Shown: piece by piece, positions 12,260 through 28,826 of the stretch
Position numbering within the stretch: the first letter of the stretch is position 1
Layout: each line of letters opens with the position of its first letter
From: an uncultured Candidatus Saccharibacteria bacterium
Lineage (GTDB): Bacteria; Patescibacteriota; Minisyncoccia; Minisyncoccales; UBA1441
Reading direction: 5' to 3'
DNA: 64,000 nt
NCBI GenBank assembly: GCA_964647465.1
Contig: CAZYFS010000001.1
Location: 28,690 to 92,689, forward strand
Translations under genes and position numbers: made by a program
Notes under the pieces: generated by a model
The model's input: the letters and a program-made list of their open reading frames with translations, nothing else
What the model was told of the DNA's origin: nothing
The model's database searches: none

Positions 12260-13912
12260 TTATTCTTCTTTTGATAGTTGAAAAAATTCACTCGGGGAAG
12301 CCGTACTCACCCTCTCAACGGCTGAAGCAGTGCCACTAATAACCTTTTCTGTCCATTGATCTTTTCCTCTTACTTCCGATTCGCTTATGAATGAATTATC
12401 CACATCCTCTTCTTCTTCGGGCGTAAAGGAAACCTGAAAAACAATTAATGCTTTCTGCTCGGGATCTAATGTTCCCGCCTCCCAATTAAGCCGATTTCCT
12501 ACGACATTATAAGTTAATTTATTCTTCTCTTCTTTGGGAAAAATTTCTCCAGTTAATTCAGCTCCTTCTGGTAAAGATGCTCCGACCCAAATATCTTTTA
12601 CTTGATTGTAGTTATTTTCTATCTGCCAAAGAACCCCATAGGTTGTCTTTTCTCCTAAGGAAAAAGGAATTGGCCCGCTATTCTGGAAAAATTCTCCTTC
12701 TTGATAAACTTTCTGCGTTAACTGTAATTGAGAATTAATCTTTGTCGAAAATACCTTTCTTACTTGCCCAATTTCAATGGCGCTATCGACAACGGGATTT
12801 TGACTGCTAATTGGCCAACTTTCTTTTAGATCAACCCAGAATTCCACCATCCCTTCTTCCTCTGCATCAAGAAACTTTAATTCTGGAACTGTCTTCCAAT
12901 CCCAAAGAATTGTGTTGTCTCCTGGATAATAATTCCCACTAGAAGACTTTAGGGTTATTAAATCAAATTGATCTCCTTCGAGTCGAATGGTTAAGAACTG
13001 TTTCTCGATTGGAATTTCGCTAACATTACGAAAAAAGACCTGATAGTGAAGAAGATCCTCTGGGTTAGCTACGTAATTTAGAGAATTGTTAATCTGTTGA
13101 GAAATATAGATAGGGGAATAAGCAATCTCCACCCTTTGACTGACGTCTTTCAAGATAATAAACTTATCCTCAATCCATATTCCGAATTGAGCCTGTAAGA
13201 ACATTTCTGTTTCATTTTCCTGATTAGATTTTCCTATCATTTTAATCCGCCCTCCGTTACGTCCAATCAGAGTAGGAATTGACCATTCTCCTTTCTCCAT
13301 TCCTTGTGGCTCACTTTCTAACACTTCTAATCCCTCTGTTCGATTTAATTTAATTCCTAGATTCGAAATGGCTTGGTCAAGATAGGAAGAATAATCGAGA
13401 GAAAACTGAAATTCTTGAGATGGGCCAACTGATTTTGGTAAACTGAATTCAAAAGTAAAAGGAACTGACTGAATAGAGGTCGCTAATTCTGTCTCTGAGG
13501 TGTAATGAGCCTTTAATCCCTTAAGCCTATAATTCACTTCGGCCTTAGCGACAACTATTTCTTCTTTTTGACCAAAAAGCTTCCCTCTGAAACGAAAAAT
13601 CTTTTCCTGCCCTGGATAAATATCTTCTGCCAGTTCTTGACGATAAATTAAAACGGCTGGTTCGATAGCCTGGGCCTGGGAAGGAAAACGAAAAATTAAC
13701 TCCGGATAGACAAGAGTAGTTGCTCCTTCGTTGCGACACTTCAACACGTATTCTACTTCTTGGCCAGCCTGAATTGATTCTGGCCCCAAAAGCTGAAGAA
13801 CCAAATCTCCTTTAGAAGAGGCGTTCCTTTGATAGAACCAAGCTGCTACTCCAGCTGTCGCAACAAAGAGAACAAGAACTATTATTAAAAAAACTTTTTT
13901 AACTTGAGACAT
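12260..13912 (-). CDS. hypothetical N-terminally anchored secreted protein (550 aa)
   Basis: Single N-terminal hydrophobic anchor (KVFLIIVLVLFVATAGVAAWFY), then a long beta-rich-looking domain and a C-terminal acidic/Ser-rich tail. No recognisable motif. Confidence 0.4.
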   Translation of the reverse strand: MSQVKKVFLIIVLVLFVATAGVAAWFYQRNASSKGDLVLQLLGPESIQAGQEVEYVLKCRNEGATTLVYPELIFRFPSQAQAIEPAVLIYRQELAEDIYPGQEKIFRFRGKLFGQKEEIVVAKAEVNYRLKGLKAHYTSETELATSIQSVPFTFEFSLPKSVGPSQEFQFSLDYSSYLDQAISNLGIKLNRTEGLEVLESEPQGMEKGEWSIPTLIGRNGGRIKMIGKSNQENETEMFLQAQFGIWIEDKFIILKDVSQRVEIAYSPIYISQQINNSLNYVANPEDLLHYQVFFRNVSEIPIEKQFLTIRLEGDQFDLITLKSSSGNYYPGDNTILWDWKTVPELKFLDAEEEGMVEFWVDLKESWPISSQNPVVDSAIEIGQVRKVFSTKINSQLQLTQKVYQEGEFFQNSGPIPFSLGEKTTYGVLWQIENNYNQVKDIWVGASLPEGAELTGEIFPKEEKNKLTYNVVGNRLNWEAGTLDPEQKALIVFQVSFTPEEEEDVDNSFISESEVRGKDQWTEKVISGTASAVERVSTASPSEFFQLSKEE

Positions 13913-13947: not shown

Positions 13948-14679
13948 TTATACCGCAAAAGACCTTTGTCTTAAACTAAAAAAGTCTAAGTGCTTTTGAG
14001 ATATTTTAGTAAGATTTTCTTGATTTTTTTGACTAATTTTCAATTTTCGAAATATTTCTTTTTCTCCTCCCAAAATAAGACGTAAGATTTTAATCGTTTC
14101 TAAATCAATTCTTTCTCCTGCAATATCTCTCTTATTCTGGAAACATTCCGGGCAAACTAAGCCAATCTGAGGAACCATATAATAAAAGGAAGCCAAGGAA
14201 GATTGACAATAAACACATCGATCAAGAGGCGGATGATCTCCCAGTTGCTTTAATAAACTCCAGAGAAAAAAATGATAAAAACGTTGATTTTGATTTTTGG
14301 CTCTAGCTAGTTGAGAAAGACTCTCTCTAATCAAAACAAAAATCGATTCATCTATAAATTCTAAAGGAAGGAGGAGGTCTAAAGATGTTACTATTTTCTG
14401 GGCTGTTTGAAGTTTTTGCCAGTCCCGAGAGAAAGAAGAAAAGTTATCTTTGGCCTTGGTCGTCGTCAAAATGTAATTTCTTTTCCCTTTAATGAAACTA
14501 ATTTCTGTCCAATAAAACAATTCTATTCCTGCTCGTAATTTTGAAAGTATTTTTCTTTCTCCTTTTGCCAAAAGCTCTATTTTCCCATATTTATCTGTAA
14601 AAACAGTAAATAGGCGATCTGCCTCTCTTCTGTCTCTTCGATTAAGAACAATAGCTTCCGCTTGATATTCTTCAAGCAT
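13948..14679 (-). CDS. recO: DNA repair protein RecO
   Basis: 243 aa. N-terminal OB-fold region (AIVLNRRDRREADRLFTVFT) and a C-terminal C4 zinc motif CVYCQS...CPEC. RecO-like. Confidence 0.8.
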   Translation of the reverse strand: MLEEYQAEAIVLNRRDRREADRLFTVFTDKYGKIELLAKGERKILSKLRAGIELFYWTEISFIKGKRNYILTTTKAKDNFSSFSRDWQKLQTAQKIVTSLDLLLPLEFIDESIFVLIRESLSQLARAKNQNQRFYHFFLWSLLKQLGDHPPLDRCVYCQSSLASFYYMVPQIGLVCPECFQNKRDIAGERIDLETIKILRLILGGEKEIFRKLKISQKNQENLTKISQKHLDFFSLRQRSFAV

Positions 14680-14681
14680 CG

Positions 14682-17600
14682 TTAGTTTTGATTAATGCCC
14701 AACCAGATTTCTTTCGAATTAATCTTTAGGTTTTTTTGAGCCAAAAGCTTTCCCTTGGCTTGAGACTTGCTAACAATCATTTCCGCTCGATTCTCTTCTA
14801 GAATTAAATCTCGAGAATCATCAATTAGTTTTTCTATTTCTGGGGTTCCTTGAATATAAAGAGTAATCCGGTGTGAGGCCTTCAGCCCTCCATCTTTTCT
14901 TAGCATTTGCACGGCGTGAATAATTTCCCTCAAAGATCCTTCCTTCCTTAACTGAATAGAAATTTTCTTTTTTAATCCAATTTGAATATTATTGTCTTCT
15001 CCTGTTTCCCAATCGTCATCCTCCGTTAATTTGGCAAAAACTATCTGCTTAATATTTAATTCTTCTTTTAGTAAAGCGACTGCTTCTTTGCTTAGTTTCT
15101 TTTCTTCTAAATTGCCTATCCTTAATTCCGACAAAGGTTGCCGAATTTTAATTCCCGCTTGCGCTCTCAGTTTGAGTCCTAGGCTAGCTATTTGCATAAT
15201 CATTTTCATTTCTTCTTCTATCGATTCGTTGATTAGAGATAGATTTGCCTTTGGATAATCGGTAAGATGAACAGAAACAGGAAAAGAGTCTTTGGTTTTT
15301 TTTATTAAGCTACTATAGATACTCTCGCCCAAAAAAGGAAGAAAGGGAGCTATCATCTGACTTAGCTTAAACAAAACACTTCCTAAAACTTGCGAGACTT
15401 CTTCTCTTTCCGAAGGAAAAGAACTCTGGAATCTATTTCGCGAACGACGAATATACCAATTCGATAAATCGTCGATGAAAGAAATAAATAATCTCGTTGC
15501 CCTTCCTACTTGATATTGTTCCATTTCCTCTGTCACCTGCTTGTTGATTTTGTTAAGACGAGAAAGAATCCAGCGATCTAAAATGTTTTTAGGCGATTGA
15601 ACCGAAGAAATAAAATCTCCCTCTGGATAAGTTTCGTAATAAGAAAAACAGTGCCAAAGAGTTAGGATGCTTTTTCGGAAGATTTCTTTAATTCCTTCTT
15701 CAGAAACAGAGAAATTGTTTCCCATTGGAGAATTCGTTAATAGGAAAAATCTTAGAGTATCTGCTCCGTACTTTTCTAAGACTAGATTAGGATCAACATA
15801 ATTCTTTAAATGCTTAGAAAGTTTTTGCCCTCCTTCGCCAACAATCAATCCATTGACGATGACATTCCGAAAAGCAGGGAGATTTTCCCCGAAACCAATA
15901 TCTTTCAAGGTTAAAGCTGTTGATAAAACATTCAAGGTATAAAACCAACCTCTTGTTTGATCGATTGCTTCAGCAACAAAATCAGCCGGGAACATGCTCT
16001 CTGTCAGGGCTTTATTCTTAAACGGATAATGATCTTGAGCATAGGGCATAGATCCCGACTCAAACCAACAATCAAAAACATCTGTAATCCTTGTCATTAC
16101 TTCTCCTTGAGGAGAATAAAATTTAATTTCATCGATATAAGGACGATGAAAATCAAGCACTCCTTCGGAATTATAAGGAAATAAATTGAATTTCCATGAT
16201 CGTAATTCCGCTGTTTTTAAATCTTGTTCCGGTGGCATTTCGCTTATTTCCTCTTGGGTCAATCCTTGACTCGCTGCTTCTAATGAATTAAAAACTCCTC
16301 TGTGACTAATAATTAGAATATTTTTCTTTTTATATTGTTGATCAATTTTCTTGAGAAAATCAAAAGCTCTTTTCTTAACTTGATTTCCTGTTTCTCCTCC
16401 ATTCGGCGAACGTGTTAATTTCTCTAGCTCAGAATTATAAAAAGCATAGTATTTTTCGAGAGATTCTTCCTCAAAAACTCCATGTTTAATTTCGCTTATT
16501 TCCGAAAAAAGACCTAAATGGAGATTAAGTGCTTTGCTAATTATTTCCGCAGTTTCTTTAGCTCGCAAAACATCTGACGCAATAATTATATCTATTTTCT
16601 TCTGCTTAAGAACCGGAATTAAATCTTCTATCTGCTTTCTTCCTTCGTTAGTGAGAGGATGTTTATCTTTCGCCGAAGAAACTAAATGCTTAACATTGCT
16701 TTCAGCTTGCCCATGACGAAGCAGCCAATAATGATTCGTTGTAAAAAGTTGTTTACGCAAATCTTCTCGGGATCCAATTACTTCTATCTCTTTTTGGGTC
16801 TCAGAAAACCAAACAGGAAGAGGTGCTCCCCAATACCGACTACGAGAAATTGACCAATCTTTTGCTCCAGCCAACCATTTCCCGAAACGCCCATCTTTTA
16901 GATGAGAAGGAACCCAGTTAATTTTTTGATTATTGGCTACTAATTGTTTCCTGAATTTCTCCACGGCGATATACCAACTATCTATAGGGTAATAGATTAA
17001 ACGGGTATCACAACGCCAACAGAAAGGATAGCTATGAGAAATTGTTTCCTTTTTCCATAACAGTCCTTTTTTTTGCAAATCCTCGACCATCTTTTCGCTT
17101 GCTGCCCAAACAGACTCTCCTTCTCCGGGAAGAGATAATCCATCTTTTATTTTTCCTCCAGCATCAACCGTTATTTTTGTAGACAAACCTTCTTTTTGAC
17201 CAAGGATCATATCGTCTTCCCCGAAAGCCGGAGCAATATGAACTAAGCCAGTTCCTTCCTCCATTGTCACCCATTCTGCTCCAACAATCCGATAATCATC
17301 TTTGCGCAAAGGAGCAATTTCATAAAGAGGCTTATATTTCTGCCCTAATAATTTTTCGCCTTTGAACTGTTCAATTATCTCGTATTCTTGATCGACGAGA
17401 AGTTCTTTTCTTGTTAAAGCAAGAATATAGCAATCCTTCCTTATCTTAACCTTAATATAGTCTTCCTCGGGATTAACGGCGACCCCAGTATTTGCTGGAA
17501 TAGTCCAAGGGGTAGTAGTCCAAACCAAAAGATAGGTTGAGGGATCTTTTTCAAGAGACACTTTGAAATAGATTGTCTCGTCCGCCTGATCTTGATAGGC

Positions 17601-18209
17601 TCCTGGCTGATTTAATTCAAAATTAGAAAGGGGCGTTCCGCAATGAGGACAATAGGGGGTGACTCGATAATCTTTATAGATAAGGTCTTGTTTATAAAGT
17701 TGCTTAAAAACCCACCAAACTGATTCAGTATAATCACTAGTTAAAGTTGCATAATGATTTTCATATTCTCCCCATCTTCCTATGCGTCGAAGAATTTTTT
17801 CAAAAGTAGCAAGATGACGAAAAACTAATTTCCGACAAGTTTCATTAAACTTTCCTATTCCTATTTTTTCAATATCCGTCTTGTCTTTAATTTTTAGTTC
17901 TGCTTCGGCTAAATTTTCAACTGGGAGGCCATGACAATCCCAACCAAAACGACGAGGAGCATAAAATCCTTTCATTGTCCAAAATCGTAGAACAGCATCC
18001 TTGATTGTAGAAGGAAGGAGATGACCATAATGAGGTTCACCTGTCGCAAAAGGAGGGCCATCATAAAAACTAAAATGAGGGCTCTTTTTTCTTTGCTCTA
18101 AGCTTTGTTCAAAAATTTTATTCTCTTTCCAGAATTTTAGAACTGATTTTTCTTTTTTTGAAAAATTAATATCCATAATTTTGAAATTACATTTTTTTAG
18201 GCGCTTCAA
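14682..18209 (-). CDS. ileS: isoleucine--tRNA ligase with an inserted PGAM-like histidine phosphatase domain
   Basis: 1175 aa. HYGH (HIGH), KLSKH (KMSKS), CP1 editing region, WSISRSRYWGAPLPVW and DVFDCWFESGS landmarks. Between these two landmarks lie about 200 extra residues with LLRHGQAESN...SDVLRAKETA...ISHRG, the histidine phosphatase signature. The likely start is the ATG at 18176-18178 (MDINFSKKEK...) rather than 18209. Confidence 0.9.
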   Translation of the reverse strand: MKRLKKCNFKIMDINFSKKEKSVLKFWKENKIFEQSLEQRKKSPHFSFYDGPPFATGEPHYGHLLPSTIKDAVLRFWTMKGFYAPRRFGWDCHGLPVENLAEAELKIKDKTDIEKIGIGKFNETCRKLVFRHLATFEKILRRIGRWGEYENHYATLTSDYTESVWWVFKQLYKQDLIYKDYRVTPYCPHCGTPLSNFELNQPGAYQDQADETIYFKVSLEKDPSTYLLVWTTTPWTIPANTGVAVNPEEDYIKVKIRKDCYILALTRKELLVDQEYEIIEQFKGEKLLGQKYKPLYEIAPLRKDDYRIVGAEWVTMEEGTGLVHIAPAFGEDDMILGQKEGLSTKITVDAGGKIKDGLSLPGEGESVWAASEKMVEDLQKKGLLWKKETISHSYPFCWRCDTRLIYYPIDSWYIAVEKFRKQLVANNQKINWVPSHLKDGRFGKWLAGAKDWSISRSRYWGAPLPVWFSETQKEIEVIGSREDLRKQLFTTNHYWLLRHGQAESNVKHLVSSAKDKHPLTNEGRKQIEDLIPVLKQKKIDIIIASDVLRAKETAEIISKALNLHLGLFSEISEIKHGVFEEESLEKYYAFYNSELEKLTRSPNGGETGNQVKKRAFDFLKKIDQQYKKKNILIISHRGVFNSLEAASQGLTQEEISEMPPEQDLKTAELRSWKFNLFPYNSEGVLDFHRPYIDEIKFYSPQGEVMTRITDVFDCWFESGSMPYAQDHYPFKNKALTESMFPADFVAEAIDQTRGWFYTLNVLSTALTLKDIGFGENLPAFRNVIVNGLIVGEGGQKLSKHLKNYVDPNLVLEKYGADTLRFFLLTNSPMGNNFSVSEEGIKEIFRKSILTLWHCFSYYETYPEGDFISSVQSPKNILDRWILSRLNKINKQVTEEMEQYQVGRATRLFISFIDDLSNWYIRRSRNRFQSSFPSEREEVSQVLGSVLFKLSQMIAPFLPFLGESIYSSLIKKTKDSFPVSVHLTDYPKANLSLINESIEEEMKMIMQIASLGLKLRAQAGIKIRQPLSELRIGNLEEKKLSKEAVALLKEELNIKQIVFAKLTEDDDWETGEDNNIQIGLKKKISIQLRKEGSLREIIHAVQMLRKDGGLKASHRITLYIQGTPEIEKLIDDSRDLILEENRAEMIVSKSQAKGKLLAQKNLKINSKEIWLGINQN

Positions 18210-19764
18210 TCCCCATTAGAGCTAAGCTCTGACGAAGAATGTTTTGTGTCAATAAAAGCAACTGACAGCGACTCGCTCGAAGACTAGGCTCTACTCTAAC
18301 AACAGGACAATCTCTATAAAATTGATGGAAATCCTGAGCTAAACGATAAGCATATTGAGGTAATCTTTGAATTTGATAATCCCTACTTATTTCTTGGACA
18401 ATTTCTGGATAATGAAATAATTGTTTCATTAAGGCTATCTCGCTGGGATTATCAAGAAGATTAAAATTAATTCTAGCTGATTTTTCCTGCTCATCAATCT
18501 TTTGAAGGATGCTGTTAATTCTAGCGTGAGCATATTGAATATAATAAACTGGATTCTCAGAGGATTTTTTCACCGCTAAGTCGAAATCAAAATCGAGATG
18601 AGAACCAGATCTCCGATTTAAGAAAAAGAATCTAGCCGCATCGTTGCCAACTTCTTCTACTAATTCGAGAAGGGTAATATAGGAGCCACTTCTTTTTGAC
18701 ATCTTAACTGTTTTTCCTTTTTTGATAATCCGGACCATTTGAACAATAATGACCTCGAGCTGAGAAGATTTGTAACCAAGCGCCTGAAGACCAGCTTTGA
18801 CGGGCTTAATGTGCCCATAATGATCGGCTCCCCAAATATCAATTACTTTGTCGAATCCTCTCTGGAATTTTTCCTGATGATAGGCAATATCTACAGCAAG
18901 ATAAGTTTTTTCGCCAGAAGATTTTATCATTACCCTATCTTTATCATCTCCAAATTGACTAGTCGCCAACCACCAAGCTCCTTCTTTTTGATAAACTAAT
19001 TTTGCTTTTTTTAAGCCTTGAATTACTTCCTCCACTTTCCCTTGGCGATAAATATCTTTTTCCGAAAACCAAACATCAAAATTGATGCCTATTTTCCGGA
19101 GAGCCGGCTTAATCATGTCATTTAATATAATTTTCGCCGCTTCGGTTCCAACCAAGCCTGGATCTTTTTCGTCCTTAAATCGACTTCTTAATTTTTCTAT
19201 ATAATCCCCCTTATAAACAATTGGTTCTTTTCCTAAAACCGAACGACCCAATTGAAGAATTTGCTGCCCGGCATCATTTACATAGTACTCTCGACTTACT
19301 TCAAATCCAGAAGTCGATAAAATATTAGCCAATACATCGCCAATAAAACCACCACGTCCATTTCCTAGTGTCAGCGGTCCAGTTGGATTTGCAGAAACAA
19401 ATTCGATTTGTATTCGAGGAGAACTTTTCCCTTTAAACAGGTTCGTATCGAAATTACCGCCCTCACTAACCTTGGTTAGTTGCTGATTTAAGAAGAATTG
19501 CGTTAAAGTAAAATTGATAAATCCTGGAGCAACCGCCTCAACTCGAAAGTCTTCGCTTTGATTAAAGGCTTTCGCCATTTTTTGAGCTAATTCCAAAGAA
19601 GGAATATTCTCTTCCTTTCCGACTATTAAGGCAAGATTCGTCGCATAATCTCCTTGTTCAGAATAACGCAAAGACTGAACCTCCCAATTCTTATTTGTAA
19701 AAGGTAATTTCTTCTTTCCTATCTCTCGTTGAATATGTTTAATAATTTCTTCTTTTATTGTCAT
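18187..19764 (-). CDS. argS: arginine--tRNA ligase
   Basis: 525 aa. N-terminal Arg-tRNA-binding domain, class I core (SANPTGPLTLGNGRGG), C-terminal DALR anticodon-binding region, and the MSK motif. Confidence 0.9.
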   Translation of the reverse strand: MTIKEEIIKHIQREIGKKKLPFTNKNWEVQSLRYSEQGDYATNLALIVGKEENIPSLELAQKMAKAFNQSEDFRVEAVAPGFINFTLTQFFLNQQLTKVSEGGNFDTNLFKGKSSPRIQIEFVSANPTGPLTLGNGRGGFIGDVLANILSTSGFEVSREYYVNDAGQQILQLGRSVLGKEPIVYKGDYIEKLRSRFKDEKDPGLVGTEAAKIILNDMIKPALRKIGINFDVWFSEKDIYRQGKVEEVIQGLKKAKLVYQKEGAWWLATSQFGDDKDRVMIKSSGEKTYLAVDIAYHQEKFQRGFDKVIDIWGADHYGHIKPVKAGLQALGYKSSQLEVIIVQMVRIIKKGKTVKMSKRSGSYITLLELVEEVGNDAARFFFLNRRSGSHLDFDFDLAVKKSSENPVYYIQYAHARINSILQKIDEQEKSARINFNLLDNPSEIALMKQLFHYPEIVQEISRDYQIQRLPQYAYRLAQDFHQFYRDCPVVRVEPSLRASRCQLLLLTQNILRQSLALMGIEAPKKM

Positions 19765-28137: not shown

Positions 28138-28826
28138 TATTTTTGAGCAATTAAATAAAGATTTTTCCGACTACCAGAAGTGTTGGTCATCCCTCCTGAA
28201 TCAACGATATTCAAATTTATCTCTCGAATTAATTTCTTTAGTTCTTTCTGCGTAAAAGCGTGATAATAAAGATTAGTTTGTCCACCCCATTGATGAATGA
28301 AATCTCTTTTTCCTAACGAAGGTTTCTTTGTTAATCTCTGGCGAAGGAAAGAAGGTTTTCCAAATCGAGAAAAAGGTAGAGGTATCTGCCAAACAGTAAG
28401 AAACAAAAGCCCATTCGGCTTTAAAACTCTCACCGCTTCTTTTAAAAGACGCAACTGTAATGAAAAAGAAGGAATGTGATGCAGAAGAGAAATGGCAAAA
28501 ACTCCGTTAAACGTCTCGCTTGGAAAAACAACCTTAAAAATGTCACCGGCTACAAAACGATTATGGGGATATTTTTGTTGAGCAATCTCAATAAGACGCG
28601 AAGAGCTGTCTATCCCGATATAACTAATTTCCTTTTCTTTCAAGGAGTCAATTAGCTGCCCGTTTCCGCAACCTATATCTAAAAGAAAATCTCCTCTCTT
28701 AACGAAGCGATTAAATTGTTCTAACTCTTTTCTCTTTATTGATCTTGTTTGAGAAAAGTCATCAGCTATTTTATTGTAACCTTCCTTGTTTCTTTCTTGA
28801 AGATATTGTGCGTATTCCTTATCCAT
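28137..28826 (-). CDS. class I SAM-dependent methyltransferase
   Basis: Motif I DIGCGNGQL, then motif II/III spacing. The stop codon abuts the tRNA-Arg 5' end. Confidence 0.8.
   Translation of the reverse strand: MDKEYAQYLQERNKEGYNKIADDFSQTRSIKRKELEQFNRFVKRGDFLLDIGCGNGQLIDSLKEKEISYIGIDSSSRLIEIAQQKYPHNRFVAGDIFKVVFPSETFNGVFAISLLHHIPSFSLQLRLLKEAVRVLKPNGLLFLTVWQIPLPFSRFGKPSFLRQRLTKKPSLGKRDFIHQWGGQTNLYYHAFTQKELKKLIREINLNIVDSGGMTNTSGSRKNLYLIAQK

Follow-up and report, generated by a model that had tools for sequence, protein, structure and literature searches.

A histidine phosphatase domain nested in the isoleucyl-tRNA synthetase of Patescibacteria

A gene for isoleucyl-tRNA synthetase (IleRS), ileS, with a histidine phosphatase domain inserted in frame was found in a 64,000-nucleotide stretch of DNA, here called the window (positions 28,690 to 92,689 of contig CAZYFS010000001.1, GenBank assembly GCA_964647465.1). 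The contig is titled as an uncultured Candidatus Saccharibacteria bacterium (Patescibacteriota), and such titles of metagenome-assembled genomes (MAGs) may be generic. The insertion had been pointed out in an earlier note made from the letters of the window alone. The architecture is real, ancient, widespread and selectively maintained, and the phosphatase is probably active. The protein is read, on balance and with modest confidence, as bifunctional, being a type-2 IleRS that holds an autonomous phosphatase of ~190 amino acids (aa) which would act on a small molecule.

The nested domain and its host synthetase

The domain and the landmarks of the synthetase lie on the minus strand as follows. 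Residue conservation was counted over 87 insert-bearing homologues, which are only ~45-57% identical overall.

14682..18209, minus strand: ileS open reading frame (ORF), type-2 (eukaryote-like) IleRS with the insertion, 1175 aa from a TTG codon
16158-16751, minus strand: the insertion, 198 residues (487-684), a compact histidine phosphatase domain with a C-terminal linker (..FNLFPYNSEGV)
16233..16727, minus strand: Pfam His_Phos_1 (PF00300), residues 495-659, E=6.8e-32
Residues 496-505: LLRHGQAESN
16710..16718, minus strand: R498-H499-G500 (RHG), putative phospho-accepting histidine and first pocket arginine
Residues 545-554: SDVLRAKETA
16563..16565, minus strand: R549, second phosphate-pocket arginine (86/87)
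16491..16493, minus strand: E573, putative general acid/base; the column is always acidic (E 57/87, D 30/87)
Residues 634-638: ISHRG
16302..16304, minus strand: H636, second pocket histidine, in ISHRG (87/87)
16752..18176, minus strand: N-terminal IleRS part, residues 12-486, with the first Rossmann half, CP core, CP1 editing domain, CP2, CP2-3 linker, and first CP3 hairpin and helix
18021-18032, minus strand: HYGH, residues 60-63, in the first Rossmann half
17502-17522, minus strand: WTTTPWT, CP1 editing motif, residues 230-236
Residues 452-467: WSISRSRYWGAPLPVW
Minus strand: WSISRSRYWG, in the CP2-3 linker of the window IleRS
14685..16157, minus strand: C-terminal IleRS part, residues 685-1175, with the second CP3 hairpin (LDFHRPYID..), second Rossmann half, Anticodon_1 and DUF5915
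16050-16082, minus strand: DVFDCWFESGS, residues 710-720, in the second Rossmann half
15810-15824, minus strand: KLSKH, KMSKS-type loop, residues 796-800

The His_Phos_1 profile matches with 111.1 bits against a cut-off of 21.7, an E-value that rules out chance, and it is flanked by the two halves of tRNA-synt_1. The earlier note had proposed a full branch-1 histidine phosphatase between the landmarks WG.P.P and DV.D.WF.SGS, at 16140-16730 (residues 494-690); the domain is indeed there and in frame, and the limits of the insertion are revised to residues 487-684. The four hallmarks of branch 1 are present, namely an RHG with its histidine, a second arginine, a second histidine and an acidic proton donor, so that the catalytic dyad expected by the earlier note is joined by two further residues and an ordinary lineage-specific insertion is refuted. 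R498, H499, S545, G577, E606, R614 and H636 are invariant (87/87) and G500 occurs in 74/87. The catalytic residues align with those of CobC and of Hydrogenobacter phosphoserine phosphatase (PSP) PSP1, the RHG standing opposite their RHG/RHA. The insert thus looks like a complete and catalytically intact branch-1 histidine phosphatase domain.

An AlphaFold2 (AF2) model of the isolated domain (predicted local distance difference test, pLDDT, 88) adopts the alpha/beta fold of the family. A Foldseek search with this model gave 306 Protein Data Bank matches at E<=1e-3, and the top 50 listed are all family members at a template modelling score (TM) of ~0.75. The best structural neighbours are small-molecule phosphatases of ~200 aa, including GpgP, mycobacterial hydrolases, PSP, the histidine family phosphatase (HFP, 9mmh) of the riboflavin pathway, CobC and PhoE, and the model shows no specific likeness to the longer true mutases. 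Every curated equivalog model that was compared scored well below its cut-off, and the substrate class is therefore not assignable by such models. These were dPGM_arch NF038349 (74.5 against 225), GpmB NF002901 (45.3 against 261), the alpha-ribazole phosphatase CobC models TIGR03162 (75.1 against 162.9) and NF011580 (67.5 against 250), PspA NF045917 (50.8 against 350), SixA TIGR00249 (33.1 against 74.5) and the RNase H/acid phosphatase NF005567 (67 against 326).

Purifying selection on the insert is as strong as that on the synthetase core. Relative to a syntenic orthologue with 87% identity (L089), the insert has a Nei-Gojobori ratio of nonsynonymous to synonymous divergence (omega, dN/dS) of 0.065, compared with 0.082 and 0.055 in the N- and C-terminal IleRS parts, at a synonymous divergence (dS) of 0.85-1.26 that is near saturation.

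The insertion is delimited by junctions K486/Q487 and V684/L685. Alignment with Thermus thermophilus IleRS pairs residues 12-486 with 6-478 and residues 685-1020 with 488-821, so that ~198 residues stand in place of a loop of ~9 residues, which settles the delimitation that the earlier note had asked of an alignment. Across 120 sequences the segment is either 188-210 or 0-6 residues long, with no intermediate lengths. Insert-less Patescibacteria IleRS read 'IGSIKELGQTIKDLHRP' and have 0-6 residues at the place where the window reads IGSREDLRKQ[LFTTNHYW ... 198 aa ... NSEGV]LDFHRP. In the domain nomenclature of Candida and yeast IleRS, the site is a surface loop inside the variable CP3 subdomain. 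CP3 follows the CP2-3 linker, which lines the pocket for tRNA A76 (PMC7191050; PMC7955072). This linker reads ARDWNVSRNRYWG in yeast and AKDWSISRSRYWG in the window IleRS, and the insertion begins ~25 residues past it. In the model the insert comes after the helix (H481-485) that follows the first CP3 hairpin and before the second hairpin (E696-698, E704-707), and it ends in a conserved C-terminal linker, F.P.PHN..ELD. Most insert-bearing and insert-less relatives keep four CP3 zinc-knuckle cysteines (CxxC ... CxC), which have been lost in the lineage of the window (WFSETQKE ... FYSPQGE in the CP3 flanks, window 16050-16860); zinc binding by CP3 is thus not needed for holding the insert. The G+C content (GC) of the insert (0.34) is barely lower than that of the rest of ileS (0.37), and composition gives no sign of a recent foreign origin.

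The synthetase part appears from its sequence to be complete and looks functional. All landmarks of a 1175-aa IleRS that had been quoted from the window were found at their positions in the ORF translation, and K796, S798 and K799 are unchanged across the 120 sequences. Pfam places tRNA-synt_1 at 23-494 and in a later part, Anticodon_1 at 878-1027 and DUF5915 at 1027-1173, and the ileS equivalog TIGR00392 matches in two stretches on either side of the insert, with 854.6 bits in all (cut-off 621.4). The full-length AF2 model has a pLDDT of 92 and a predicted TM-score (pTM) of 0.86, so that both parts of the protein fold confidently in prediction, and its target-normalised TM is 0.83-0.89 for Priestia megaterium IleRS2 and yeast IleRS and 0.91 for T. 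thermophilus IleRS. The GNAT-bearing IleRS model NF040702 (294 against 1999) and the mupirocin-resistance models MupA/MupB (NF000257/8; 687 and 644 against 1900) were rejected. The true start of ileS is probably the ATG at 18176 (M12), giving a gene of 1164 rather than 1175 codons, because an identical database protein of 1164 aa begins there and residues 1-11 are disordered in the full-length model (pLDDT <50). The TTG start gives an overlap of ileS and argS of 23 nt. A promoter and terminator scan around ileS found sites no more numerous than in shuffled sequence.

Distribution, strain variation and neighbouring genes

A search with the insert and its flanks returned at least 45 protein clusters with both PF00133 and PF00300, at 31-47% identity, whose source labels include Paceibacterota, Kaiserbacteria, Nomurabacteria and Parcubacteria. 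The insert is present in 87 of the 120 best full-length database matches, and 788 relatives of the domain were found at E<=1e-10 among 1.84 billion cluster representatives. A scan of one genome per species gave at least 527 tblastn-positive stretches, a census that rests on the single peptide motif [GNK]KNILI[VI]SH (8-sequence profile) and is therefore biased and a lower bound; a 24-sequence profile of the insert alone was too diverse for the genome scan. In 77 of the best 80 species-genome loci the domain lies within an IleRS ORF of ~1100-1350 aa, which supplies the survey of relatives that the earlier note had called for. The labels of these 80 loci are of Patescibacteria type or simply 'bacterium', apart from two Pacearchaeota. 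The MAGs with the insert-bearing IleRS loci L022, L069 and P0014 carry the names 'Candidatus Pacearchaeota archaeon' or 'Nanoarchaeota archaeon'. Confusion with Paceibacterota during binning or naming could account for this, as could gene transfer between bacteria of the Candidate Phyla Radiation (CPR) and DPANN archaea.

Mis-assembly or a chimera, which the earlier note had named as a possible refutation, was ruled out by hundreds of independent orthologues with the same junctions and by the gapless syntenic relative with 87% identity, with low dN/dS across the junctions. The insertion is also not an intein, as had been argued: Pfam detects no Hint or intein domain in it, and the junction residues Q487 and V684/L685 are not intein-like.

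The insert varies between closely related strains. In an IleRS tree built without the insert columns, insert-less sequences are dispersed within insert-bearing clades. Outside the insert, the insert-less proteins P0188, P0192 and P0194 are 96% identical to the insert-bearing P0142, and by the same measure P0178 and P0190 are 91% identical to P0140, and P0212 is 89% identical to P0176. Two contigs from different samples, L092 and L093, have identical gene order and gene lengths, with nucleotide identities of 97.7% in argS and 98.7% from recO through the M16 gene. Their ileS genes (L092, 1954-4794; L093, 5001-8435) differ by a gap of exactly 594 nt, and are ~93-99% identical over the 5' 1.35 kb (150-nt windows) and ~100% over the 3' 1.3 kb. 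The gap is bordered by densely mismatched sequence, 48 nt preceding and 71 nt following it (67% identical), and these divergent flanks show that a cassette was exchanged and not cleanly deleted. The whole CP3 cassette, flank, insert and flank, was swapped by homologous recombination with a diverged allele, and the mosaic points to a recent event of this kind within an essential gene, between lineages that co-exist. No IleRS residues that co-vary with presence of the insert, as a docking interface might require, were found beyond phylogenetic noise.

The genes next to ileS in the window are as follows.

18187..19764, minus strand: argS, directly upstream of ileS
13948..14679, minus strand: recO, directly downstream of ileS

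The wider order is infC and smpB, then argS, ileS with the phosphatase, recO, a 550-aa protein, a class II synthetase, a peptidase M16 and an AI-2E transporter. The 550-aa protein (12260-13912) is without a Pfam match, and its slot in syntenic relatives is held by CLIPPER/DUF7619-like proteins of 622 aa. The same synteny block, recO included, is common to three kinds of locus. In one, argS is followed directly by an insert-less ileS with no phosphatase nearby; in another, a stand-alone phosphatase of 180-199 aa lies between argS and an insert-less ileS (6/6 loci examined), with 1-16 bp between phosphatase and ileS in five of these and 85 bp at L081; in the last, as in the window, the phosphatase is inserted in ileS. 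No second phosphatase paralogue was found in the 64-kb window or near the insert-less ileS loci.

The stand-alone family comprises at least 120 clusters at >=56% identity to the L032 query. Its sequences form one tight clade (mean identity 66%) nested among the far more diverse inserted forms (mean identity 39%). With CobC and PSP1 as outgroups, all 100 of 100 bootstrap replicates recover the stand-alone sequences as monophyletic and none does so for the inserted forms; these are neighbour-joining trees of domains 25-45% identical. From this nesting, the insert is the most likely origin of the free gene. The position of that gene beside ileS may be simply inherited and is not independent evidence of functional coupling. 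The ileS genes beside stand-alone phosphatases fall at three different places on the IleRS tree (e.g. L046, 6563-9349, and L048, 6575-9436) and differ in their HIGH-region motifs (PPFATGRPHYGH, PPTANGKPGIHH and GPITANNPMGVHH), which hints that ileS was replaced in situ next to the phosphatase. The phosphatase module is thus facultative: the synthetase can do without it, and it is able to function as a separate protein.

Related domains occur in other proteins. The 144 top cluster representatives that were classified comprise 91 IleRS (four with two phosphatase domains), three valyl-tRNA synthetases (ValRS), 46 free proteins (four of them tandem doubles) and four that matched the IleRS and ValRS references too weakly for assignment. 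P0446 (L090, 5001-8990) is a full-length ValRS (NF004349, 997 bits against 704) with two tandem domains between WWGHRIPVW and DTLDTWFSS, at the site equivalent to CP3. The ValRS P0407 has two phosphatase domains and the ValRS P0362 has four. Almost all copies keep the catalytic set, but the second copies in P0446 and P0407 have lost catalytic residues. The IleRS P0377 (1419 aa) carries one domain in CP3 and another in the loop that starts the anticodon-binding domain, and the IleRS P0388 and P0476 have two each. A weak neighbour-joining tree places the domains of ValRS and the additional copies of IleRS away from the main clade of IleRS inserts, a pattern suggestive of several independent acquisitions. 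A single fusion to arginyl-tRNA synthetase (ArgRS) is explained as read-through from the adjacent gene. A 387-aa protein, P0421 (L091, 977-2140), joins a Sua5/YciO/YrdC domain (threonylcarbamoyl-AMP synthase, TsaC-type) to a phosphatase of the IleRS-insert clade, and is a singleton on a 3.7-kb contig. The phosphatase is thus a facultative, recurrently recruited module on class Ia synthetases. In addition, the IleRS fragment P0433 (1066 aa, JGI) shows a REP-associated tyrosine transposase at 326-472, His_Phos_1 at 680-854 and GNAT at 935-1063, and may be a multi-insert gene or a chimeric call.

Possible functions of the domain

The grafted phosphatase is of the compact PhoE/CobC/PSP-like type. 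R498, R549 and H636 would hold the terminal phosphoryl group of the substrate, H499 would attack it to form a phospho-histidine intermediate, and E573 would protonate the leaving group and then activate water; these steps via H499 and E573 are inferred as the standard chemistry of the family. The substrate would most likely be a small phosphorylated molecule. Internal cleavage of Ap4A or attack on an aminoacyl adenylate, both proposed in the earlier note, is chemically unlikely, since the family mechanism implies that histidine phosphatases normally need a terminal phosphoryl group. Under the favoured account of an autonomous phosphatase, the module would need neither covalent linkage to IleRS nor substrate channelling, and the chief effect of fusion would be to link its amount and location to those of a class Ia synthetase that is expressed constitutively. 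Strain-level dispensability and the absence of co-adapted IleRS residues pull toward such autonomy. Several points weigh against it. Recruitment of His_Phos_1 to IleRS, ValRS and a TsaC-like protein was repeated and apparently independent, and was accompanied by tandem amplification. Such recurrence implies that the association with adenylate-forming, tRNA-related enzymes is itself selected, which a coupled function would explain better than co-expression. The high pTM and the conserved C-terminal linker suggest a placement in the model that is fixed rather than floppy. The near-saturated dS and the neighbour-joining trees of weakly similar domains count on the same side. Recurrence and tandem amplification thus pull toward coupling, and the coupled accounts taken together carry appreciable weight, short of an even chance.

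Tentatively, the phosphatase may be an accessory activity functionally coupled to class Ia synthetases. Its strain-variable, recombining and copy-number-variable behaviour would then mark it as an adaptive addition to the CPR translation apparatus. It might clear pyrophosphate (PPi) or a nucleotide at the adenylation site, or strip inhibitory phosphate from tRNA 3' ends or from a toxin-attacked synthetase. The version of coupling with a small-molecule substrate, a reactant or by-product of adenylation, is less probable than autonomy, though not negligible; PPi hydrolysis could pull the formation of Ile-AMP forward, or a nucleotide could be the substrate, and the fusion would then serve to bring the phosphatase to enzymes that form adenylates and release PPi. 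All known partners turn ATP into an adenylate and PPi (IleRS, ValRS, one ArgRS and one Sua5/YciO/YrdC-type TsaC), but the TsaC and ArgRS fusions are singletons and the latter is accounted for by gene adjacency. The ValRS inserts and extra IleRS copies outside the main clade suggest independent acquisitions, a need for higher turnover would fit the tandem arrays, which reach four mostly intact copies, and the site lies ~25 residues past the linker lining the A76 pocket; against this, the domain is absent from near-identical strains and many relatives, and the 87 homologues show no conserved basic residues other than those of the generic core. Branch-2 members of the superfamily, such as Escherichia coli AppA, cleave phosphoanhydrides, but we know of no branch-1 member that is an inorganic pyrophosphatase. 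An H+-PPase has moreover been reported in at least one Parcubacterium (PMC5220378). A macromolecular substrate is a weaker prospect again. The target might be a 2'/3'-terminal phosphate or pyrophosphate that nucleases or toxins had left on tRNA. It might also be a phosphoprotein, perhaps the synthetase once a kinase toxin had modified it. The domain would then serve as an accessory module for repair or against toxins. In favour, its patchy occurrence, its presence or absence between strains, its variable copy number and the exchange of the cassette are what is typically seen in conflict-driven accessory functions. The domain is also anchored to enzymes that bind tRNA, beside the CCA-binding region, and matches the SixA profile weakly. 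The superfamily also includes the protein phosphatases SixA, PGAM5 and Sts. However, the nearest neighbours in sequence and structure are all small-molecule phosphatases, the SixA score of 33 lies below 74.5, no meaningful match to defence-system models (PADLOC) was found, the neighbourhood gives no hint of a toxin or kinase, and repair of tRNA ends tied to IleRS and ValRS alone would not rescue other tRNAs.

That the domain is a non-catalytic appendage of IleRS, whether structural, tRNA-binding or ligand-sensing (regulatory), is very unlikely. The second ValRS copies without catalytic residues (domain 2 of P0446 and of P0407) and the confident, apparently rigid placement in the model would suit it, but the full catalytic set is invariant in the IleRS inserts and stand-alone proteins, the domain also occurs as a free protein, and the IleRS of near-identical strains lacks it. 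It is scarcely credible that the domain is the cofactor-dependent phosphoglycerate mutase (dPGM) of the cell, or another named enzyme such as CobC or PSP, fused by chance. Among NCBIfam models the highest scores come from ribazole_cobC (75 bits) and dPGM_arch (74.5 bits), and JGI labels some stand-alone homologues 'probable phosphoglycerate mutase' or 'PhoE', but the equivalog scores are far under their cut-offs (75 against 163, 74.5 against 225 and 51 against 350) and such an enzyme would here be dispensable between strains. The domain is also of the short phosphatase type, without the FTGW.D motif and C-terminal tail of dPGM. An assembly or gene-calling artefact or an intein may be practically dismissed, given the same junctions in hundreds of independent assemblies, the lack of a Hint match and a GC of the insert near that of the rest of the gene.

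Few enzymes have been studied as thoroughly as the aminoacyl-tRNA synthetases, whose known extra domains mostly serve editing, tRNA binding or, in eukaryotes, signalling. It is unusual for the catalytic body of IleRS to enclose another catalytic domain that is unrelated to it and apparently active, and that has a related form in ValRS. The earlier note knew of no such synthetase, and this holds for the literature searched, in which no description of the architecture was found under IleRS or aminoacyl-tRNA synthetases with histidine phosphatase, phosphoglycerate mutase, CPR or fusion. A 2026 survey of 96,219 IleRS domain architectures makes no mention of a phosphatase or of Patescibacteria. In public metagenomic protein sets the architecture is abundant, and a nested phosphatase common across a major uncultured bacterial radiation has gone undescribed in the literature searched. 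In NCBI many insert-bearing proteins go by 'class I tRNA ligase family protein' alone and the insert-less relatives by 'isoleucine--tRNA ligase', and some databases annotate insert-bearing proteins 'isoleucyl-tRNA synthetase'; the NCBI and JGI labels for the synthetases and free phosphatases can distort metabolic reconstructions of CPR genomes. The near-identical alleles with and without the domain, together with one clade that has a separate gene, form a natural experiment in which the link between phosphatase and aminoacylation can be addressed. If the phosphatase were a coupled accessory activity, it would represent a previously unrecognised kind of synthetase-embedded enzyme.

Comparison with known systems

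The window IleRS shares its full domain set with type-2 IleRS (P. megaterium IleRS2, 8c8v) and T. thermophilus IleRS (1ile), comprising a Rossmann fold with HIGH and KMSKS-type motifs, CP core, CP1, CP2, CP3, an anticodon-binding domain and a DUF5915-type C-terminus, with a target-normalised TM of 0.85-0.91. It differs from type-2 IleRS in the 198-aa enzyme domain in CP3, the loss of the zinc-knuckle cysteines and KLSKH for KMSKS. The insert has the same fold as the compact branch-1 phosphatases PhoE (1h2e), CobC (6nru, 6e4b), Hydrogenobacter phosphoserine phosphatase (4ij5), GpgP Rv2419c (4pz9) and HFP (9mmh), with a TM of ~0.75, 20-26% identity, the same catalytic residues, a length of ~190 aa and no dPGM tail. 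Its own loop motif is ..N...I.SS......LT..G, where the compact phosphatases usually have QG..D.PLT, and unlike them it lies inside a tRNA synthetase or is linked to one genetically. It scores below every curated family cut-off.

The family NF040702, 'isoleucine--tRNA ligase, N-acetyltransferase domain-containing', likewise has an extra internal enzyme domain, which is a GNAT at about positions 275-495 and, as judged from model coordinates, lies in CP1 and not in CP3. The Rv2228c-type RNase H/acid phosphatase (NF005567) and PFK-2/FBPase-2 are precedents for a branch-1 phosphatase fused to an unrelated enzyme, one of these being an enzyme that acts on nucleic acid. Both of those fusions are end-to-end, whereas the domain in the window is nested in a loop of its host enzyme.

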